Origin: Parcubacteria group bacterium
GTDB lineage: Bacteria; Patescibacteriota; Minisyncoccia; Minisyncoccales; UBA10102
Reading direction: 5' to 3'
NCBI GenBank assembly: GCA_016203945.1
Contig: JACQLT010000001.1
Span: forward strand, 6,645 to 70,644
DNA length: 64,000 nucleotides
The notes under the pieces were generated by a model. That model was not told the DNA's origin, ran no database searches, and saw only the letters and a list, made by a program, of their open reading frames with translations. The position numbers were made by a program, and so were the translations under genes. Shown piece by piece: positions 4,768-49,173 of this stretch. Positions within the stretch are counted from its first letter, which is position 1. Each line of letters opens with the position of its first letter.

Positions 4768-4796
4768 ATGGTATCGTGAAATATGATATAATGCAA
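4768..4796 (-). promoter_or_regulatory. murA promoter, leaderless type
   Basis: TTGCAT-17-TACCAT then 6 nt to ATG. Confidence 0.5.
4784..4792 (+). promoter_or_regulatory. extended -10 for PEGA gene, leaderless type
   Basis: TGaTATAAT, 7 nt to ATG 4800. Confidence 0.5.
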
Positions 4797-4799
4797 CAG

Positions 4800-5918
4800 A
4801 TGACCAAACGCACGAGAACTCTTCTCTTTTTCTCTTTGGTGCTGCTTTTCTCCGTGGTAGCTCCAGCCCTCATTTTGTACTCGTTGGGGTATCGCGTTGA
4901 CTGGCAAGAAGGAAGTATTGCCCAAACAGGAGGCCTTTATATTAAAACGGATCCTGCCAATGCCGTTATTTCTATCAATGGCAAGCAAGAAAAGAAAACT
5001 GATTTCCTCTTCGGCGAGCTTTTTGTGGATAACCTGCTTCCCGGAACCTACGCGGTGAAGATAGAAAAGGAAGGATACAAGCCCTGGCAGAAAAATCTTG
5101 TAGTACAAGCAAAGCAGGTGACGGAGGCGAAAAATATCATGCTATTTCCAGCCCAGACCGCCCTCAAAACACTGTTTGATTCTGTCGAGGAGGTATGGCC
5201 ATCTCCCGACTTGAACCTCCTCCTGCTTCAGCAAACATCCCCCCAAAGAGAAAGACACCTCTTGCTCTGGAACCCCAGAACCAACAAAGAGACCCCTGTA
5301 ATACAGCGGCTCACTTTTACTCAGAAAATCCAAAGCGTTCAATGGGATAAAAACGGAAAGGCCTTCCTTGTCCAGTTCCAGAAAGGAGGAGGCCAACCCC
5401 TGGTATTTAATGAGCAGGGAGAACCCTGCAAGGAATCTTTCTGTCTTGAGAACATTCTCAAGATTCAGCCCACGGACCAAGAAAAATTTCTTTCTGCCGC
5501 AGAAGAATCCTTGCGGCAGATTTTTCCTCAGATACAAGAACGAGCGCTCAGCCCTGATGAAAAGAAAATAGCCCTGACACAGGGTTCTGAGCTCTGGCTC
5601 CTCTACCTTCAGGACGACGAAGGTCAGCCCAAAAGAACTAAAGGAGAGCGGGTATTCTTAAGCAGGTTTGGAGAACAGATACAGAACCTTTCTTGGGTGA
5701 GCAACCACTATCTTCTATTGGGTATTGGCGGCGACGTTCGGATCGTAGAGATTGATGACCGAGATTCTCTGAATACGATCTCTTTGGGCTCATTCCCTGC
5801 CTTGCCTGCCTCGCCGGTAGGCGGGCCAAACCTTCGTATTTTCTGGGACAACAAAGAAAAAGTTATCTACATCCTGGGCAACGGCATCCTCTCGGTTTCA
5901 GAAAAACTCCTCCGATAG
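4800..5918 (+). CDS. membrane-anchored PEGA-domain protein
   Basis: N-terminal TM helix then PEGA-like block (YIKTDPANAVISINGK...LLPGTYAVKIEKEGYKPW); ATG 4800 preferred over GTG 4776 because TGaTATAAT lies 7 nt upstream. Confidence 0.6.
   Translation: MTKRTRTLLFFSLVLLFSVVAPALILYSLGYRVDWQEGSIAQTGGLYIKTDPANAVISINGKQEKKTDFLFGELFVDNLLPGTYAVKIEKEGYKPWQKNLVVQAKQVTEAKNIMLFPAQTALKTLFDSVEEVWPSPDLNLLLLQQTSPQRERHLLLWNPRTNKETPVIQRLTFTQKIQSVQWDKNGKAFLVQFQKGGGQPLVFNEQGEPCKESFCLENILKIQPTDQEKFLSAAEESLRQIFPQIQERALSPDEKKIALTQGSELWLLYLQDDEGQPKRTKGERVFLSRFGEQIQNLSWVSNHYLLLGIGGDVRIVEIDDRDSLNTISLGSFPALPASPVGGPNLRIFWDNKEKVIYILGNGILSVSEKLLR
5796..5825 (+). repeat. hybrid A/B-like 30-nt element in plus-strand PEGA gene
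   Basis: cctgccttgcc (first 11 nt of family B) + tgcctcgccggtaggcggg (family-A-like hairpin); encodes PALPASPVGG. Confidence 0.45.
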
Positions 5919-5987: not shown

Positions 5988-6437
5988 CTACCGTTTCCTC
6001 CACTGCGTGGCGCGGCGGGCTCGGTGAAGTCCGAACTTCTTGCGCTCGCGCATGCGGGGATCTCTCGTTAAGAATCCAAGCGCTCTCAAGCGGCTTCTCA
6101 GCTCGGGGTCTCCTGCGACAAGAGCACGAGCTACGCCGTGACGGATGGCTTCTGCCTGAGCTGGCAATCCCCCGCCCTTCGTCAACACCTTCACCAAGAA
6201 AGAATCTTCTGTGCCGGCTTTTTCCAAAGATTCCTTGGCTACCCGCTGGAGTTCTGAATCCTGAAAGTATTGCTCCACCGGTTTCTCGTTCACCGTGAAT
6301 TTCTGCTCTTTAGTTTTTGAGGATGTAGGCCAAAGACGGACACGCGCCGTTGCGGTCTTTCTCCGTCCTACCCCCTCCAGATATTTGCCTGCCTGCGCAG
6401 GCAGGCCTTCTTTGTTGGTTTCTTTCTGCGCCGCCAT
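5988..6437 (-). CDS. rpsI: 30S ribosomal protein S9
   Basis: C-terminal ...GGGLPAQAEAIRHGVARAL...RKKFGLHRARRATQWRKR; start at MAAQKE (alternative 6452). Confidence 0.9.
   Translation of the reverse strand: MAAQKETNKEGLPAQAGKYLEGVGRRKTATARVRLWPTSSKTKEQKFTVNEKPVEQYFQDSELQRVAKESLEKAGTEDSFLVKVLTKGGGLPAQAEAIRHGVARALVAGDPELRSRLRALGFLTRDPRMRERKKFGLHRARRATQWRKR
6387..6406 (-). repeat. family B short variant (perfect 20-nt palindrome), rpsI copy
   Basis: gcctgcctgcgcaggcaggc; encodes (G)LPAQAG. Confidence 0.7.
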
Positions 6438-7163: not shown

Positions 7164-7188
7164 GCGAAAAATAAATTATTTATTTGAG
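7161..7188 (-). repeat. AT-rich start-proximal repeat (rplQ copy)
   Basis: catgcgaaaaataaattatttatttgag; includes rpoA stop; TTTTTCGCATGCGAAAAA palindrome centred on rplQ ATG. Confidence 0.8.
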
Positions 7189-7980
7189 TACCTTCTTCTT
7201 TGAAACCCGCTTCTTTCCGACAGCCGTTTTCCCCGCCTTGCTGCGAGGCAGGTTTGTCTTCTTCTCTTTCTTTTCCTCGGAGGGAGACGTTTCCTCTCTG
7301 CTCAGCCCTTCTCCGATGCGCTGGAATTGCCCCTGGAGGGTTTCGATTGCCTGCGCCAGGGCTGCTGTAGGAGTAAGCGCGCCGTCGGTCTCAATCTCTA
7401 GAATGAGCCGGTCAAAGTCGGTTCGCTCCCCAACACGCATGGCTTCCACCCGGAAGCTCACACGCCTGACAGGAGAGAAGACGGCGTCCAGGGCGATTGC
7501 TCCGATCTCTTGTTTTTCGCCTTTGCGCGCCTCCACGGCCACGTATCCGACGCCTCGCTCAATGCGCAGTTCCATGTCCAGCTCCGCGTGCTTATCCTGC
7601 AAGGTAGCGATGGCCATATCCTTGTTTATCACCTGAACCTCAGAGGAGGTTTTGATATCTCCTGCTTTTACCTTTTTCTCTCCCTTTACCTTGAGGGTCA
7701 CCGCCTGAGGTTCGTCTGAAAACATGCGAAAGCGCACCTGCTTGAGGCGCAAAAGAATGGTCACTACATCTTCTGTAACTCCGGGAATGGCCGAAAACTC
7801 ATGGGCAACACCCTTGATCTTCACCTGAGTAATGGCTGCTCCCTGCAAAGAAGAAAGGAGCACCCGCCTGAGCGTGTTCCCAACGCTCACTCCATATCCA
7901 GGATACAAAGCTTCAATCTCAAACACTCCCTTGTTCTCTGTCTGTTGCACTGTTTTTGCTGGTTGTGGAAGAGGAATCAT
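7180..7980 (-). CDS. rpoA: DNA-directed RNA polymerase alpha subunit, N-terminal domain plus Lys-rich tail (no alpha-CTD)
   Basis: alpha-NTD similarity over about 225 aa; ends in SREETSPSEEKKEKKTNLPRSKAGKTAVGKKRVSKKKVLK. Confidence 0.85.
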   Translation of the reverse strand: MIPLPQPAKTVQQTENKGVFEIEALYPGYGVSVGNTLRRVLLSSLQGAAITQVKIKGVAHEFSAIPGVTEDVVTILLRLKQVRFRMFSDEPQAVTLKVKGEKKVKAGDIKTSSEVQVINKDMAIATLQDKHAELDMELRIERGVGYVAVEARKGEKQEIGAIALDAVFSPVRRVSFRVEAMRVGERTDFDRLILEIETDGALTPTAALAQAIETLQGQFQRIGEGLSREETSPSEEKKEKKTNLPRSKAGKTAVGKKRVSKKKVLK

Positions 7981-11156: not shown

Positions 11157-13034
11157 TTAGGAAGTTTTCAAAAGATGTCCGCGAATTCTCCGCACCCCGG
11201 CCGATACCGCTTCCTGTTTTCCGATGCGGAATCCCCCCACCTCTCTTGTGTGCTGCACGTGAGGGCCTCCGCACAGTTCTCTGGAGAACACGTCTCCTGT
11301 CTCAGGATTTCGGGCGGAATACACTTTCACCACGTCAGGATACTTCTCTCTCGGGGAATACAGAGCTCCCAAAGCTACCGCTTCCTGAAAGGGCATTTCC
11401 TTATATCCCATATCAAGATTCTGGCGAATCGCTTCGTTCACCAAGAACTCTATTTGTCGCACCTCTTCATCCGTCAGCTTCCGATCAAACGTAAAGTCAA
11501 AGCGGGTGCGTTCCGGGGTGATGTCAGAACCTGCCTGATGCACGCTTTCCCCTAATACCTTGCGCAGGGCAGCCTGCAGCAAATGGGTTGCCGTATGCAA
11601 ACGCGTGACAACCTTCAGTTCCTCCTCGTTCGCCGCCTTCAGCTCTCCCGTATCTAGTAAGAGCCCATGACCTCCGAACTTTCGCTCTTTCCCTGCTCTT
11701 GAAATTTCCTGATGTTTTCGAAATTCCTCATCAAATTCTTCCCTATCAATAAAAAGTGCGTGTTCGGCTAACAATTCGTTAATGAGCTCTAGTGGAAATC
11801 CATAACTCTGATATAAATCAAATGCTTCTTTTGGAGATATAGCATTGATGGTATAGGCAGACTTTTTACGAAGGTTTTTCGGAGGCCATCTAACAGCATA
11901 TTTTTTTTTGTTCTTTTCTCTTGATAAAAGCTTCTGAAACTCTGTAAGGCCCTTTTCAAGAGTCTTGCTAAATCTATCTGTCTCTTTCTGTAAAACTTCT
12001 AAAATAACCGACTTTTCTTCTCGTAAATTATTATAGTCAGGAACCTTACCATATATTCGTATGATTTCTTCTGCAGGACTTAAATAAAATTTTGAATCTA
12101 ACCCAGCTCCGATGTACTTATAGTGATTAAGCATGGCTCGCCTTATTAATCTCCGCAAAATATAACCCGCTTCTTTATTTGAGGGTCTTATTCCGTCTCC
12201 GATCAAAAATATACTGGCACGTAGGTGATCGGCAATAACACGGAGCTTTTCTATTGGTTTATCTCCAATAATTTCAATGATTGAACTGAAAATTGACATA
12301 AACAAATCTGTCTCGAATATATTCTTCTTGCCTTGGACAACCATCGCCAGTCTTTCTAACCCCATGCCGGTATCTACTCCCGGCTTCTCTAGCTTCCGCA
12401 ACTTCTTGTCCTTTGAGCAGTAGTACTCGTTGAATACGATGTTCCAGACCTCGGTGTTGTTGATATAGAGCTCGGTAGTGGGACCGCAGGGTCCCTCAGC
12501 TCCTGTGGGCCCCCAGAAGTTGTCCTCTCTCCCCTCCTCTCTGATATCCTTGACGCCAAGCTCACTCCAGAACTTTTTTGACTCCTCATCTCTGGGAACC
12601 TCCTTGTCTCCCCCGAACACGGTCACATACTGAATCTTCAACCCAATTTCTTTCAAGAACTCATGGGCAAGCCGTATCGCCTCCTCCTTGAAGTATCCGC
12701 CAAAAGAGAAGTTTCCAAGCATCTCAAAGAAGGTGAGGTGGGTCTCGTCTCCGACGCTGTCAATGTCTGAGGTGCGGAAGGATTTTTGAATGGATACCGC
12801 GTTCCTGCTTCCCAGGAACTTCCCTCCCAAGGTTTGATGAGGAGAAGACATGGGATCTGCCTCTCCCGTGTAATAGGGCTTAAACTGCTGCATGCCTGCC
12901 GTGGTAAGAAGCACAGAGGCGTCATCTGGAACCAAAGAAGACGAGGGCACAATGGTGTGCTTCCCGCCCGTGGCGGGTCCGCCTTGGGCGGAAAAAAACT
13001 CCAAAAATCTCCTGCGCAACTCCTGCGACTCCAT
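11157..13034 (-). CDS. alaS: alanyl-tRNA synthetase, short form (625 aa, no C-Ala domain)
   Basis: TAGMQQFKP, FEMLGNFSFGGYFK, GMGLERL, editing-domain HTATHLL and CGGPH motifs. Confidence 0.9.
   Translation of the reverse strand: MESQELRRRFLEFFSAQGGPATGGKHTIVPSSSLVPDDASVLLTTAGMQQFKPYYTGEADPMSSPHQTLGGKFLGSRNAVSIQKSFRTSDIDSVGDETHLTFFEMLGNFSFGGYFKEEAIRLAHEFLKEIGLKIQYVTVFGGDKEVPRDEESKKFWSELGVKDIREEGREDNFWGPTGAEGPCGPTTELYINNTEVWNIVFNEYYCSKDKKLRKLEKPGVDTGMGLERLAMVVQGKKNIFETDLFMSIFSSIIEIIGDKPIEKLRVIADHLRASIFLIGDGIRPSNKEAGYILRRLIRRAMLNHYKYIGAGLDSKFYLSPAEEIIRIYGKVPDYNNLREEKSVILEVLQKETDRFSKTLEKGLTEFQKLLSREKNKKKYAVRWPPKNLRKKSAYTINAISPKEAFDLYQSYGFPLELINELLAEHALFIDREEFDEEFRKHQEISRAGKERKFGGHGLLLDTGELKAANEEELKVVTRLHTATHLLQAALRKVLGESVHQAGSDITPERTRFDFTFDRKLTDEEVRQIEFLVNEAIRQNLDMGYKEMPFQEAVALGALYSPREKYPDVVKVYSARNPETGDVFSRELCGGPHVQHTREVGGFRIGKQEAVSAGVRRIRGHLLKTS
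12963..12992 (-). repeat. family A 30-nt in-frame double-hairpin element, alaS copy
   Basis: cccgcccgtggcggg|tccgccttgggcgga; encodes SAQGGPATGG. Confidence 0.8.
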
Positions 13035-18041: not shown

Positions 18042-18783
18042 ATATTCCTTTCCAAAGGTTAATCCTGATTTTCAATACTTCAAGCAGCATCTTTATCATG
18101 CCAGACAGCTTCACCCTGCTATTGGGATCATTGATCCATCTGACCGGAATCTCTTGTATTTTGTATTTGCGTTTCTTCGCCAGGACGAGAATTTCTACGT
18201 CAAACGCCCACCTGTCAATAGTGGCCCGCGAAAACAATTCTTCCGCCGCCTTTCTGGTAAATCCCTTAAACCCGCACTGCGTGTCCCATATGCCCCAGAG
18301 GCCCGAGATGGTCTGGACGATGAGGTTAAAGATATCTCCCAGGCGCATCCGCAGCCAAGACTGGGGCACAGGAAGCTCGGCTCCCTTGATGTCGCGGGAA
18401 CCAATGACCACCTCAAATCCCTTTTCTCCGCCAGAGGCGGACCCGCCTTGGGCGGGAAACCATGGCCACATTCGTTCCACCTGATCTACCGAAGTTGAGT
18501 TGTCGGCATCCATAAACAGGCGAAAGTCCCCGTGCGCAGCCAGCATGCCCTGTTTTACCGTGTATCCCTTTCCACGATTCTCCTTGCGATCAATAAGCCA
18601 AAGATTCTTGATAGATTCCGCCGCCTGCCGCACCACGTCTGCCGTGCTGTCTTTGGAGCCGTCGTTCACCACCAGAATCTCGTATTTATAGGATTGCCTC
18701 CTCAAGTATTCATCCACCGCCTTCAAGGTATTCGGAAGGCGCTCTGCCTCGTTGTATGCGGGAATAATAACAGATAATCGCAT
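18031..18783 (-). CDS. family 2 glycosyltransferase (dolichyl/polyprenyl-phosphate hexosyltransferase-like)
   Basis: SVIIPAYNE, VNDGSKDST, DADNS motifs. Confidence 0.8.
   Translation of the reverse strand: MRLSVIIPAYNEAERLPNTLKAVDEYLRRQSYKYEILVVNDGSKDSTADVVRQAAESIKNLWLIDRKENRGKGYTVKQGMLAAHGDFRLFMDADNSTSVDQVERMWPWFPAQGGSASGGEKGFEVVIGSRDIKGAELPVPQSWLRMRLGDIFNLIVQTISGLWGIWDTQCGFKGFTRKAAEELFSRATIDRWAFDVEILVLAKKRKYKIQEIPVRWINDPNSRVKLSGMIKMLLEVLKIRINLWKGIYER
18427..18456 (-). repeat. family A element, glycosyltransferase copy
   Basis: tccgccagaggcgga|cccgccttgggcggg; encodes PAQGGSASGG. Confidence 0.8.
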
Positions 18784-26815: not shown

Positions 26816-27328
26816 TTATATGCTCTTCCTTCTGAACATGCGTCTCATCCCTTGTTCTTTTTTCGGTACCTCCTTTCGTGTCATAGCTCGTGGAATCTGT
26901 TTTCTGGATTCGTCTTTCATCGTCTGTTCCTGCTCATCTTGAACTTCCTGCGCCTCTTGCACTGCTTTGGATTCCTGCTTTTTCTCTTTTAATTCTTCGC
27001 GGGATCCCAGCACCAAGGTAATGTGTGAGGTCTTCTTTTGAATCTCGAAGGCCTGGCCGCGCGAGCGTGCCCTCCGGCGCTTTAGCTTAGAACCTTCATC
27101 TACGGTAAGCTTCTCAATATACATCTGATTCTCCTGAACTTCAAAACGTAGCTTTGCTGCGGCTGCAGCTGCCTTCAGAAGTTTGGAGAAGGAATCGGTC
27201 CCTTTCTTGGTGGTAAAGCGCAAAATCGCCTCAGCTTCTCTGATGCTTTTTCCCCGGATCAAATCTGCCACGAGGCGGACCTTTCTGGGAGCTATTCTTA
27301 GGTTGCGTAATGTTGCGGATGATTGCAT
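26816..27328 (-). CDS. rplV: 50S ribosomal protein L22 with acidic/basic C-terminal extension
   Basis: Start at MQSSATLRNLRIAPRKVRLVADLIRG; ORF-track start 27451 overlaps rpsS. Confidence 0.88.
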   Translation of the reverse strand: MQSSATLRNLRIAPRKVRLVADLIRGKSIREAEAILRFTTKKGTDSFSKLLKAAAAAAKLRFEVQENQMYIEKLTVDEGSKLKRRRARSRGQAFEIQKKTSHITLVLGSREELKEKKQESKAVQEAQEVQDEQEQTMKDESRKQIPRAMTRKEVPKKEQGMRRMFRRKSI

Positions 27329-27332
27329 GGGA

Positions 27333-27716
27333 TTATTTTCCGCCAGAGGCGGATCCGTCTTTGGCGGACTTTCCTTCTGCTGACGCAGCTGTGGTTGCTG
27401 CCGCTGCCGCCTGTTGCCCTTGCTCAAGTTCCTTCTGGATCCTTCCTCCATGCTTGCCGAACTTAGTGGAGGGAGAAAACTCTCCCAACCTATGGCCTAC
27501 CATTTCTTCAACCACGAGCACGGGAATAAAATCCTTCCCGTTGTGCACGCCAAAGGAAAATCCGATCATGTCGGGAGTGATGGTAGCAGCCCTGCTCCAG
27601 GTCTTTATCACGGTCTTGCCTGCCTTGCCGTCAGGCAGGTCCCCTGACTTGAGCTTTTTGACCTTGAGCATGAGCTTCTCGTCTATATACGGGCCTTTTT
27701 TGAGTGATCGAGCCAT
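27333..27716 (-). CDS. rpsS: 30S ribosomal protein S19 carrying two in-frame hairpin elements
   Basis: MARSLKKGPYID...TWSR...VHNGK...EMVGHRLGEF; 7-aa LPDGKAG insertion and Ala/Gly-rich C-terminal extension. Confidence 0.92.
   Translation of the reverse strand: MARSLKKGPYIDEKLMLKVKKLKSGDLPDGKAGKTVIKTWSRAATITPDMIGFSFGVHNGKDFIPVLVVEEMVGHRLGEFSPSTKFGKHGGRIQKELEQGQQAAAAATTAASAEGKSAKDGSASGGK
27339..27368 (-). repeat. family A element, rpsS 3'-end copy
   Basis: tccgccagaggcgga|tccgtctttggcgga; encodes SAKDGSASGG just before stop. Confidence 0.75.
27619..27639 (-). repeat. family B 21-nt in-frame hairpin element, rpsS copy
   Basis: cctgccttgccgtcaggcagg; encodes LPDGKAG; identical to 44222-44242. 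Confidence 0.85.
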
Positions 27717-38566: not shown

Positions 38567-39154
38567 TCAGAACATCATGTCCTCCTCTGCCCTTTTGTAG
38601 TCGTGTATCTCTTCTGGAGCAAACCAAAACGTAATCTCGTGTTCTGCTTCCTCGGGAGTTTCTGAGGCGTGTAGGATATTGTGGATGGCACGCTTATCCC
38701 TGTTGGCAGCGGTTGCGTCATCCACGGAGAAGTCCCCTCTAATGGTGCCCATCTCAGCTACTGCCGGCATCGTATTCCCTGCGATCTTTCTCATCATATC
38801 CACCGCATGAATGCCCTTGACTACCATTTTTACCAAAGGGCTTGAAGTCATATAGTCAATGAGCCAGGATCGCACCATAATTCCAATTTCTTCTGGTTTA
38901 TCCGTGCCCAGTTCCTGGCTGGCATCCCATCCGTACTTCTTATAGTTTGCAAGAGTTTTCTCTCCAAGGCGCTTAATCCAGGAAGAATCTTTTGGATAGT
39001 GATCGTCAATTTGCGCTTTTGTCGCGGTAAACATCTCCAAAGCAATAATCTTTAATCCCCTTCTTTCCAGACGAGAAATAATCTCGCCGATGAGTCCGCG
39101 CTTTACTCCGTCTGGTTTAACAATGACAACGGTCCTTTCTTCTTTTGGATGCAT
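38567..39154 (-). CDS. ndk: nucleoside diphosphate kinase (long form, 195 aa)
   Basis: VIVKPDGVKRGLIGEIISR..., NILHASE (catalytic His) context. Confidence 0.85.
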   Translation of the reverse strand: MHPKEERTVVIVKPDGVKRGLIGEIISRLERRGLKIIALEMFTATKAQIDDHYPKDSSWIKRLGEKTLANYKKYGWDASQELGTDKPEEIGIMVRSWLIDYMTSSPLVKMVVKGIHAVDMMRKIAGNTMPAVAEMGTIRGDFSVDDATAANRDKRAIHNILHASETPEEAEHEITFWFAPEEIHDYKRAEEDMMF

Positions 39155-42676: not shown

Positions 42677-44319
<1,643 letters not shown>

Positions 44320-48747: not shown

Positions 48748-49173
48748 TCATACCTTGCTTATAGGATGCTTGTAAAGAGCCCGCACTATGGAGATGGATA
48801 TCCCCTGTTCCGCCATCCACTGTTTCAGATCCTTCTCAAGCGCGTCCTGATCATAGCCGAGGCAGATGACGTCAGGCGCAAGTCGCTCAAGCACCCGCCA
48901 GGAAGACAGATCCTTGTCACCCAACACAGCCCAACTCACCAAGGGCTCCTGACTTACGAGGCGCATGCGCTCCTGCTCTGGAAGCCGAGGTTCTTTCTTC
49001 TTGAACTCCCGCACGAAGCTATCCCTGCCAACAATGGCAACTAGTTCAATATCTGTGCGGACTTGCCCCGAGCGATCCGCCGACTGGGCGGAGAGTCGAT
49101 GGGCCTGGTCGAACAAAGAACGGTGACCCTCATGCACCCCGTCAAAAATACCGAATACGACAACTCGTTTCAT
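48748..49173 (-). CDS. cytidylyltransferase-like nucleotidyltransferase, archaeal RibL (FAD synthase)-like
   Basis: VVVFGIFDGVHEGH (HxGH) motif, about 141 aa; ATGA overlap with upstream gene. Confidence 0.55.
   Translation of the reverse strand: MKRVVVFGIFDGVHEGHRSLFDQAHRLSAQSADRSGQVRTDIELVAIVGRDSFVREFKKKEPRLPEQERMRLVSQEPLVSWAVLGDKDLSSWRVLERLAPDVICLGYDQDALEKDLKQWMAEQGISISIVRALYKHPISKV

Follow-up and report, generated by a model that had tools for sequence, protein, structure and literature searches.

Two dispersed families of very short palindromic elements inserted in the ribosomal protein S19 gene of a member of the Parcubacteria

How does a ribosomal protein gene come to carry, at two separate places, hairpin-forming inserts of 21 and 30 nt whose relatives lie in unrelated genes? 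The question is raised by rpsS, which encodes ribosomal protein S19 (uS19), in a 64,000-nt stretch (hereafter the window) of the genome of a Parcubacteria group bacterium (assembly GCA_016203945.1, contig JACQLT010000001.1, positions 6,645 to 70,644). The encoded protein is a 100% match to the S19 recorded at NCBI as "MAG: Parcubacteria group bacterium" (MAG, metagenome-assembled genome), and its gene, flanked by rplB and rplV, keeps to the usual S10-operon order. Across the helix 1-strand 1 loop the protein reads SGD-LPDGKAG-KTVIKTWSR, whereas the S19 of E. coli reads SGD-KKPLRTWSR, and its C-terminus reads ...AEGK-SAKDGSASGG-K. The excess of 7 residues in the loop had been ascribed, from the sequence alone, to a 21-nt hairpin, and this ascription proved exact. 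The hairpin belongs to a dispersed family, here called family B, and the end of the protein is encoded by a 30-nt double hairpin of a second family, here called family A (Table 1). The account that we favor, and consider probable, is that S19 has been colonized twice, by two families of ultra-short GC-rich palindromic selfish elements that are kept where their translation is tolerated.

Comparison with the nearest orthologues shows both S19 elements to have been inserted. Two S19 genes whose products are 88-89% identical to that of the window (P0003 and P0004) are without both elements, a third (P0002, 87% identical) has both, and a fourth (P0005) has the tail unit only; among the 120 nearest S19 sequences, the presence of inserts is sporadic. 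The window protein exceeds that of P0003 by 17 residues (127 versus 110), which is exactly 7 + 10 residues, or 21 + 30 nt. The proposal that two different dispersed elements had entered one 127-codon gene is thus borne out, the size difference from the two orthologues that are without both being exactly 7 + 10 codons. Within the loop, the insertion point of the family B element is between GA and C of the Asp26 codon. Written in codons, the empty allele is TCA GGA GAC/AAG ACC and the filled allele is GGG GA-CCTGCCTGACGGCAAGGCAGG-C AAG ACC; when the sites are compared as GGAGA/CAAGACC and GGGGA(21)CAAGACC, no target bases are seen to be duplicated, and the empty site shows that the flanking A and C predate the insertion. 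A second exact copy, in the atpD gene for the beta subunit of the F1 ATPase, has a comparable history. Homologues of 93-96% identity carry LPDGKAG, whereas those of 90-94% identity (P0124-P0137) are without it and read ...VEFAES/LPSLQN...; the empty GAGTC/CCTCCC and the filled GAATC(21)CCTTCC again differ by no duplicated bases. A single assembly, GCA_041643095.1, presents empty sites for all three insertions, those of the S19 loop, the S19 tail, and atpD.

The tail calls for a finer distinction. The sequence-only reading held that the family A element had created a new C-terminus, in which an Ala/Gly/Gln-rich extension of roughly 35 residues ends in the family A unit (SAKDGSASGG-K-stop). The protein does end in that unit, but the extension as a whole is not the work of the element: an Ala/Gln-rich tail of about 25 residues follows HGGRIQKELE in nearly all aligned Parcubacteria S19 proteins, variable in sequence and comparable in length, so that the tail is a trait of the Parcubacteria to which only 10 residues have been added. 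The terminal lysine and stop codon look ancestral. The region of the Lys codon, the stop, and the L22 start, AAATAATCCnATG, is common to S19 genes with and without the element, and the arrangement AAA-TAA-TCCnATG (last Lys, stop, L22 start) is likewise shared by filled and empty genes. Judged from these comparisons, the family A element appears to be 30 nt that entered in frame, immediately ahead of the ancestral final Lys and stop codons; since the low-complexity tail aligns ambiguously, alignment leaves its boundaries uncertain, and its placement before the final Lys codon rests on length arithmetic. The longest L22 open reading frame (ORF; 26816-27451) begins within the S19 tail, and the conserved TAA-TCCC-ATG spacing, together with the homologues, points to the ATG listed in Table 1 as the real rplV start.

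Table 1. Positions of the elements and of the host features discussed in the text (window coordinates, or locus identifiers for genes of other genomes)
Feature	Position	Strand	Description
rpsS (uS19)	27333-27716	minus	127 codons + stop; Pfam PF00203, E 3.5e-31, residues 3-89; host of both elements
Family B in rpsS	27619-27639	minus	CCTGCCTGACGGCAAGGCAGG; 21 nt; 7-bp stem, 7-nt loop; reads (D)LPDGKAG
Family A in rpsS	27339-27368	minus	30-nt double hairpin TCCGCCAAAGACGGA+TCCGCCTCTGGCGGA; residues 117-126, SAKDGSASGG
Ala/Gln-rich low-complexity S19 tail	27369-27449	minus	Residues 90-116; outside the family A element; typical of the lineage
Ancestral-looking final Lys codon + TAA	27333-27338	minus	Next come the conserved TCCC spacer and the ATG that starts L22, 27328-27326
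Family B, second exact copy	44222-44242	minus	atpD (F1 beta subunit), N-terminal barrel loop; same frame, LPDGKAG
Family B variant in rpsI (S9)	6388-6405	minus	18 nt, CCTGCCTGCGCAGGCAGG; N-terminal extension; reads LPAQAG
Family B variant in rpoA	7232-7252	minus	21 nt, CCTGCCTCGCAGCAAGGCGGG; Lys-rich C-terminal tail; reads LPRSKAG
B-like copy, degenerate/compound	5795-5825	minus	CCCGCCTACCGGCGAGGCAGG+CAAGGCAGGG; within plus-strand PEGA-domain gene 4776-5918; reads PALPASPVGG
Family A in alaS	12963-12992	minus	30-nt double hairpin near N-terminus; SAQGGPATGG; fold z -4.0
Family A in family-2 glycosyltransferase gene	18427-18456	minus	30-nt double hairpin; PAQGGSASGG; fold z -3.1
DnaK genes with the family B 21-mer	L023, L066, L109, L123		Parcubacteria, Levyibacteriota, Giovannonibacteria, Sungbacteria; flanking 60 nt only 52-77% identical

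Both places at which S19 has been hit are modeled with low confidence. In an AlphaFold (AF2) model of the window protein, with a mean predicted local distance difference test score (pLDDT) of 63, the loop insert lies between the helix of residues 13-21 and the strand of residues 36-39, and the pLDDT falls below 50 at residues 30-33 and again from residue 101 onward, so that residues 101-127 are modeled without confidence. The loops of E. coli and of the solved S19 structures are 6-7 residues shorter than that of the window protein, and loop length differs among the solved structures themselves. On the strength of this model and of the comparisons that follow, the helix 1-strand 1 loop and the C-terminal tail look like tolerant, repeatedly hit sites.

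Other lineages have received related hairpins at the same two places. Among the best 120 S19 sequences, a B-type hairpin occurs in the loop of three lineages: the window together with P0002, P0010, and P0021. That of P0010 occupies the same position with a different hairpin loop (CTGCCTACCGGACAGGCAGGT, LPTGQAG), and that of P0021, from Giovannonibacteria, lies one codon upstream (CCTGCCTGCCGGCAAGGCAGG, LPAGKAG). A family A unit (SAKGGPVSGG) has entered the helix 1-strand 1 loop of P0081, and further family A units stand at the C-termini of P0029 and P0062, which are 61-62% identical in S19; the gene of P0029 ends in CCCGCCAAAGGCGGG TCCGCCTCCGGCGGA AAG AAG TAA, with the unit directly before the terminal lysines. 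In a Wildermuthbacteria member, the AtpD loop that holds family B in the window holds a family A unit (SAKGGSAAGG) instead. Across the S19 copies it is the palindromic nucleotide sequence that is kept, and not the peptide. The "insertion pressure or high tolerance" that had been suggested for this gene finds support in independent hits to the loop (P0010, P0021, P0081) and to the tail (P0029, P0062). An alignment of patescibacterial S19 had been proposed as a check, with a loop and tail conserved as protein over unrelated nucleotide sequences as the outcome that would have spoken against insertion; the alignment gives the opposite, sporadic inserts with a conserved palindrome, because distant Parcubacteria have independently gained related hairpins in the same loop and tail. 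The earlier observation was real and its interpretation essentially right.

Within the window the elements are concentrated well beyond chance. The sequence CCTGCCTGACGGCAAGGCAGG occurs twice against an expectation of 0.00 in 100 shuffles of the window, none of which gave a match even with 3 mismatches, and hairpins of the form CYGCC..GGCRG number 18 where 2.9 are expected. All copies lie inside ORFs and have lengths of 18, 21, or 30 nt. The DNA folds of both families range from -7.3 to -13.6 kcal/mol, the S19 copy of family B being at -7.3 kcal/mol; the fold of the degenerate B-like copy at 5795-5825 is not significant (z -0.7). The window is gene-dense, has a GC content of 51%, and has nearly every gene on the minus strand, with a uniformly negative GC skew of the plus strand; as the copy at 5795-5825 sits in the only plus-strand gene nearby, all copies share one chromosomal orientation whatever the direction of the gene. 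Family A consists of two 15-nt units, each with a 6-bp stem and a 3-nt loop. In the S19 copy the second hairpin is intact and the first, one substitution off the consensus, is reduced to 4 bp; this first hairpin is broken in the genes of P0002 and P0005 as well. Used as it stands, the S19 30-mer finds no further copy in the window at up to 3 mismatches, and the family was detected only through a repeat search and a corrected consensus, TCCGCCAAAGGCGGATCCGCCTCTGGCGGA, which is the S19 copy with its one broken base repaired and is itself absent from the window.

Some of the other host genes in the window deserve mention in their own right. Its RpoA (7180-7980) has 266 residues, with Pfam matches to the N-terminal and insert domains and none to the alpha-CTD; a metagenomic RpoA of the same architecture (L202:260-1048) has an exact family A unit in the equivalent Lys-rich tail. 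The alanyl-tRNA synthetase (11157-13034; 625 residues) comprises the catalytic core and the second additional domain without the long C-terminal part, and its family A unit directly follows the conserved FLEFF motif. A 17-nt single hairpin, TCCGCCCAGTCGGCGGA, at 49076-49092 of the minus strand, lies in a cytidylyltransferase-like gene and reads SAQSAD; as its length is not divisible by three, it could be either a unit in decay or a chance resemblance. The nucleoside diphosphate kinase gene (38567-39154, minus strand; 195 residues) matches its Pfam model in two separate stretches, which suggests an internal insertion of some other kind.

Far beyond the window, the exact 21-mer was sought in one genome per GTDB species, 596 Gb in all, and was found at no fewer than 119 species-representative loci, against about 0.3 expected by arithmetic for a database of that size. 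These cross-genome counts are of exact matches and are lower bounds, and the taxonomy of some MAGs may be wrong. The flanks of the loci are unrelated. Among the matches listed, the hosts include Ignavibacteria, many Bacteroidota, Treponema and a spirochaete symbiont, Omnitrophota, WOR-3, Planctomycetota, Chloroflexota, Chloroherpeton, Pelotomaculum propionicicum, and gammaproteobacterial MAGs, and, within the Patescibacteria, Saccharibacteria and the Levyi-, Davies-, Yanofsky-, Giovannoni-, and Sungbacteria. Copies are present in long-read assemblies and in isolate genomes, such as those of Arenibacter sp. F20364, Aquimarina celericrescens KCTC 52897, and Fulvivirga lutimaris KCTC 42720. The median GC content of the family B carrier loci is 37%. 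The repaired family A consensus TCCGCCAAAGGCGGATCCGCCTCTGGCGGA has at least 120 exact matches in metagenome contigs. These matches bear out the prediction that the family is large and that the S19 copy is one of its slightly decayed members. Near-consensus doublets occur in an Ignavibacteria MAG, where the stem is compensated (TCAGCC...GGCTGA), and a partial copy occurs in an Omnitrophota MAG.

Several of these loci show the elements in larger arrangements. The 21-mer is part of longer repeats of 150-280 nt in Ignavibacteria GWC2_36_12 (L032, L065, L079) and in a Lutibacter MAG (L039, L068, L084), and an Aureispira MAG has a pair of copies abutting head to head (L060:1687-1728). Noncoding family B copies are often at the apex of a larger palindrome, as in attcccca-B-tgggaat. 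The type I restriction gene hsdR carrying the 21-mer (L080:103-3411 and L111) is about 90% identical over 3.2 kb between the genome of an Olavius spirochaete symbiont and a Methylococcaceae MAG, a likeness that points either to horizontal transfer of the entire gene or to faulty binning. Family A has an exact unit in a double-AAA ATPase of the Cdc48/VCP-like type that includes a CDC48_N domain (L143:2996-5344); this architecture being typical of archaea, the elements may extend beyond the Bacteria. These hairpins are undescribed in the literature searched, which included searches for the literal nucleotide and peptide strings, although most subscription journals lay outside its coverage and a prior description is possible; the sole matches for GGSASGG were synthetic linkers.

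The dispersed copies obey rules of frame, flank, and stem. Out of 125 family B copies listed, 47 lie in long ORFs that read LPDGKAG, about 53 are noncoding, and none is coding in the frame that contains TGA. For family A (120 listed copies), 67 read SAKGGSASGG, 17 are read from the opposite strand as SARGGSAFGG, and 21 are noncoding. One dominant frame and lengths in multiples of three are what translation of the inserts, with selection on frame and peptide, would be expected to produce. The flanks follow RR/Y in family B (A62/G48/C10/T1 at -1 and C52/T43 at +1) and TTY/RAA in family A, with T at -2 in 53 of 59 copies and A at +2 in 52 of 59; the S19 copy of family A, preceded by AAG rather than TTY, is an exception to the upstream rule. 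As the preference holds in noncoding copies too, it is a property of the element or the target and not an effect of the peptide. The idea that the flanks extend the family B stem was rejected, since the -1 and +1 bases pair in 39 of 121 copies, about the expectation under independence; R/Y is a flank preference that lies outside the stem. Within the stems themselves, on the other hand, the closing pair is Watson-Crick in 54 of the 57 non-consensus NCCGCC-N3-GGCGGN units (T-A in 45, C-G in 8), and in coding family A copies this pair joins the first base of a Ser or Pro codon to the synonymous third base of a Gly codon. Such conservation implies that the constraint acts on the nucleic acid.

The proteins that host the elements are diverse. 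Family B has entered FtsH, IF-2, DnaK, the type I restriction subunit HsdR, a DNA methylase, a penicillin amidase, and a propeller sensor kinase; family A is seen in the C-terminal sorting domains of the type IX secretion system (T9SS), in the tails of RpoA and S15, in RecG, in the Cdc48-like ATPase, and in a class I tRNA synthetase. In a hybrid sensor kinase that has about 13 Reg_prop propeller repeats (L105:456-4982), the exact 21-mer stands at the equivalent position of two of the repeats (..GE(S/R)/LPDGKAG/FTHYT..). The T9SS sorting domains of unrelated secreted proteins are hit in the same beta-hairpin (..Y.V.F/A/(D/N)..SGVY) by family A at L138, L167, L211, L227, and L245, and by family B at L016, L029, L070, and L099; as far as these sequences allow, this beta-hairpin looks like a hot spot in genomes of the Fibrobacteres-Chlorobi-Bacteroidetes (FCB) group.

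We propose that the elements insert widely at short preferred sequences without target duplication, as is seen at the family B sites for which empty alleles are available. Selection would then remove copies unless they lie in frame, encode a short flexible peptide of Gly, Ala, Ser, Pro, Lys, and Asp, and fall in tolerant surface loops or termini, with retention confined to places where 5-10 added flexible residues do no harm. The S19 inserts would be translated as LPDGKAG and SAKDGSASGG and would thereafter decay slowly by point mutation. A tolerant loop and a disordered tail would explain why S19 has been hit repeatedly and independently in several lineages. The most speculative step is mobilization itself, which might be effected in trans by an enzyme that recognizes DNA hairpins; we favor one that acts on single-stranded DNA, by analogy with the REP-associated tyrosine transposases (RAYTs, of the HUH/Y1 type) that act on repetitive extragenic palindromes (REPs).

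A number of observations sit uneasily with such selfish spread. The identity of the sequences across phyla is unlike REPs, which are normally specific to a species or genus, and would need a very conserved recognizer or frequent horizontal transfer. At the same DnaK codon (..RDAGD/LPDGKAG/K..), four deeply diverged lineages of the candidate phyla radiation (CPR) carry the identical 21-mer; the target, GGNGA/YAAR, resembles that of S19, and the pattern could mean site-specific homing or a nucleotide-level function and not random insertion followed by selection. Function may also underlie the strong bias to sense orientation and frame. With respect to local GC skew, noncoding copies are not biased in orientation (27:23 for family B and 3:8 for family A), a weak test on loci of up to 8 kb, and so lend no support to a mechanism specific to the single-stranded DNA of one replication strand. 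No transposase or RAYT-like gene is found among the roughly 30 ORFs of the window scanned with Pfam, no element was caught in movement, and none of the 2.9 million viral contigs of IMG/VR has the 21-mer, so that no vector is evident. Orientation specific to the replication strand, as in IS200/IS605 elements, was itself considered and found no support in the same noncoding counts, crude as the test is; among coding copies the orientation bias follows the sense strand.

Another account dispenses with a dedicated transposase. Under it, copies would be generated while DNA is replicated or repaired, through template switching or gene conversion guided by microhomology of an existing copy with the target, and would be by-products of a hairpin-prone DNA metabolism. 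Consistent with this, no duplication is found at the family B sites with empty alleles, no transposase is present among the window ORFs scanned, the element's own ...GGCAAGG has a likeness in the S19 and DnaK targets (GA/CAAR) and its start, CCTGCC, has one in the atpD target (/CCTYCC), and the tandem 15-mers of family A are of a kind that slippage could duplicate. We nevertheless regard it as unlikely, for it poorly fits clean insertions of whole units, with flank rules specific to each family, at hundreds of unrelated sites, and it leaves the identical sequences of different phyla unexplained.

The constraint on the stems raises a different prospect, in which the hairpins are functional cis-acting signals, either protein-binding or structure-forming sites in the DNA or mRNA hairpins concerned with stability, processing, or ribosome pausing, that are kept because they are useful, even if perhaps still dispersed by transposition. 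For REPs, binding of gyrase or of integration host factor (IHF) has been proposed. The maintenance of stems by compensatory changes accords with such signals, as do the identical 21-mer at one DnaK codon in four lineages whose flanks are 52-77% identical, the 100% conservation of CCTGCCTGACGGCAAGGCAGG between the S19 genes of the window and P0002 although their flanks differ, and the position of noncoding copies at the apex of larger palindromes. Yet the host genes and the positions within them are unrelated, the closest relatives manage without the inserts, the family A copies of the window S19, P0002, and P0005 are visibly decaying, and the constraints on frame and length show translation to be the dominant filter. 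Intrinsic terminators in particular were rejected, there being no U-tract (no T-run in the DNA) downstream of the hairpins and the copies being inside ORFs; at the Rfam gathering threshold the window contains one tRNA only and no other known RNA family. The chances of a cis-acting role we would accordingly put as slim, and slightly slimmer than those of template switching.

Adaptation of the protein fares much worse. It would make the loop insert and the tail ordinary adaptations of the CPR ribosome, specific to the lineage and selected as protein, and the nucleotide repeats a coincidence. Long C-terminal extensions are indeed general in Parcubacteria S19, and peptides of the LPxGxAG type do recur at the same loop. 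But the same 21 nt stand in atpD and at 119 or more loci of many phyla, the nearest relatives are without inserts, and it is the palindrome, not the peptide, that is conserved; a convergent protein-level motif was rejected on this nucleotide identity and palindrome conservation, and the whole account is very improbable. Scarcely any credence can be given to artefacts of sequencing or assembly or to contaminating synthetic DNA, for although most carriers are MAGs, GGSASGG resembles designed linkers, and a BamHI site lies at the family A junction, an independent sample (L002) has the same insert at this position of S19, with synonymous differences in the flanks, isolate genomes and long-read assemblies carry copies, and artefacts would not be expected to show strong frame bias, flank rules, or mutational decay.

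Colonization by palindromic selfish elements, which thus remains our preferred account, invites comparison with known mobile palindromes. Di Nocera et al. (2013, PMC3733652) describe intragenic, "codogenic" REPs, which are sometimes in frame in housekeeping genes such as uvrA, dnaE2, and those for tRNA synthetases, where different species have been struck at comparable places. Like the elements described here, REPs are dispersed, GC-rich, imperfect palindromes (of 20-40 nt) that occur as monomers and dimers and can form stem-loops. They differ in having a terminal GTAG/CGTC tag: here GTAG is found nowhere, CGTC is present only on the opposite strand, inside the loop of family B, and neither tetranucleotide occurs in family A. 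A cognate RAYT gene is often flanked by REPs, and the roughly 30 ORFs scanned, all from this 64-kb part of the genome, include none. Moreover, REPs are mostly extragenic, between convergent or co-directional genes, whereas every window copy is intragenic and elsewhere 47 of 125 family B and 67 of 120 family A listed copies are in frame; and REP families are restricted to a species or genus, whereas the identical 21-mer is found in many phyla. The units here are also shorter (15 and 21 nt), with lengths in multiples of three.

A second parallel is provided by the Rickettsia palindromic elements (RPEs), reportedly described by Ogata and colleagues in 2000 and 2002. These too are compatible with translation, favor tolerant surface sites, and are sporadic among orthologues, and their in-frame insertion into ORFs whose close-relative orthologues lack it is matched here by S19 and atpD; they are mentioned in PMC3733652. 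RPEs are set apart by length, being about 100-150 bp and encoding 30-50 residues, and are limited to Rickettsia and its relatives, whereas the present elements, at 21 and 30 nt, are 5-7 times shorter and cross phyla. In mitochondria, optional mobile G+C clusters occur in the yeast ribosomal protein gene var1, and Allomyces has double-hairpin elements (DHEs). Both resemble the present elements as short GC-rich palindromes that are optional between strains and may lie in a ribosomal protein gene, and family A is literally a double hairpin, as DHEs are. The hosts of GC clusters are AT-rich, which the median of 37% GC for carrier loci recalls but the 51% of the window does not; the clusters and DHEs are furthermore organellar, 30-50 bp or longer, and lineage-specific, with a mobility tied to double-strand breaks and gene conversion in crosses. 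Mitochondria of Magnusiomyces contain "byp" elements, which the ribosome skips. Those are much longer, and skipping allows freedom of frame and stop codons, whereas the single dominant frame and the lack of coding family B copies in the stop frame indicate read-through here. Miniature inverted-repeat transposable elements, known as MITEs, are similarly non-autonomous and dispersed, have terminal inverted symmetry, and lie occasionally in frame in genes, but they are of about 50 bp or more and have terminal inverted repeats derived from insertion sequences and target-site duplications (PMC10969869); no duplication is seen at the S19 family B or atpD sites. The coding palindromes termed palindromic amphipathic repeat coding elements (PARCELs; PMC2996958) are much longer and form tandem repeat modules of surface proteins, and those of nematomorph mitochondria (PMC6649704) are also much longer; like the byp elements, both kinds combine a palindrome with an open frame, as here. 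The elements work like REPs, RPEs, and MITEs but belong to none of these classes; they are kin of the intragenic selfish palindromes, with a substantial possibility that they form a distinct class of minimal mobile elements that crosses phyla.

A more ambitious interpretation, to which we give somewhat less than an even chance, is that families A and B together make up a single superfamily of the smallest mobile elements known, pan-bacterial and possibly pan-prokaryotic in range. These would be coding-compatible hairpins of 15-21 nt, their identity kept by a conserved hairpin-specific enzyme that recognizes nearly every base, either horizontally spreading or of a housekeeping kind, and their length in multiples of three, open frame, and flexible Gly/Ala/Ser/Pro/Lys peptide adapted to essential genes, with true target-site homing at DnaK and the S19 loop. 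If so, such elements would have colonized essential genes (those for S19, S15, RpoA, AtpD, DnaK, IF-2, FtsH, and AlaRS) in gene-dense genomes with little intergenic space. Should the preferred account hold, mobile DNA could be as small as one hairpin of 15-21 nt whose identity is kept across phyla. This would pose a testable problem, namely, which enzyme recognizes CCTGCCT-N7-AGGCAGG and YCCGCC-N3-GGCGGR and by what route the elements cross phylum boundaries. The universal markers of the CPR, including the ribosomal proteins used for phylogeny and binning, would then carry optional inserts of 7-10 residues that are not vertically inherited, and the alignments, trees, and structural interpretation of CPR ribosomes would be affected. 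More generally, the elements would amount to a natural catalogue of the positions in essential proteins that tolerate flexible inserts.

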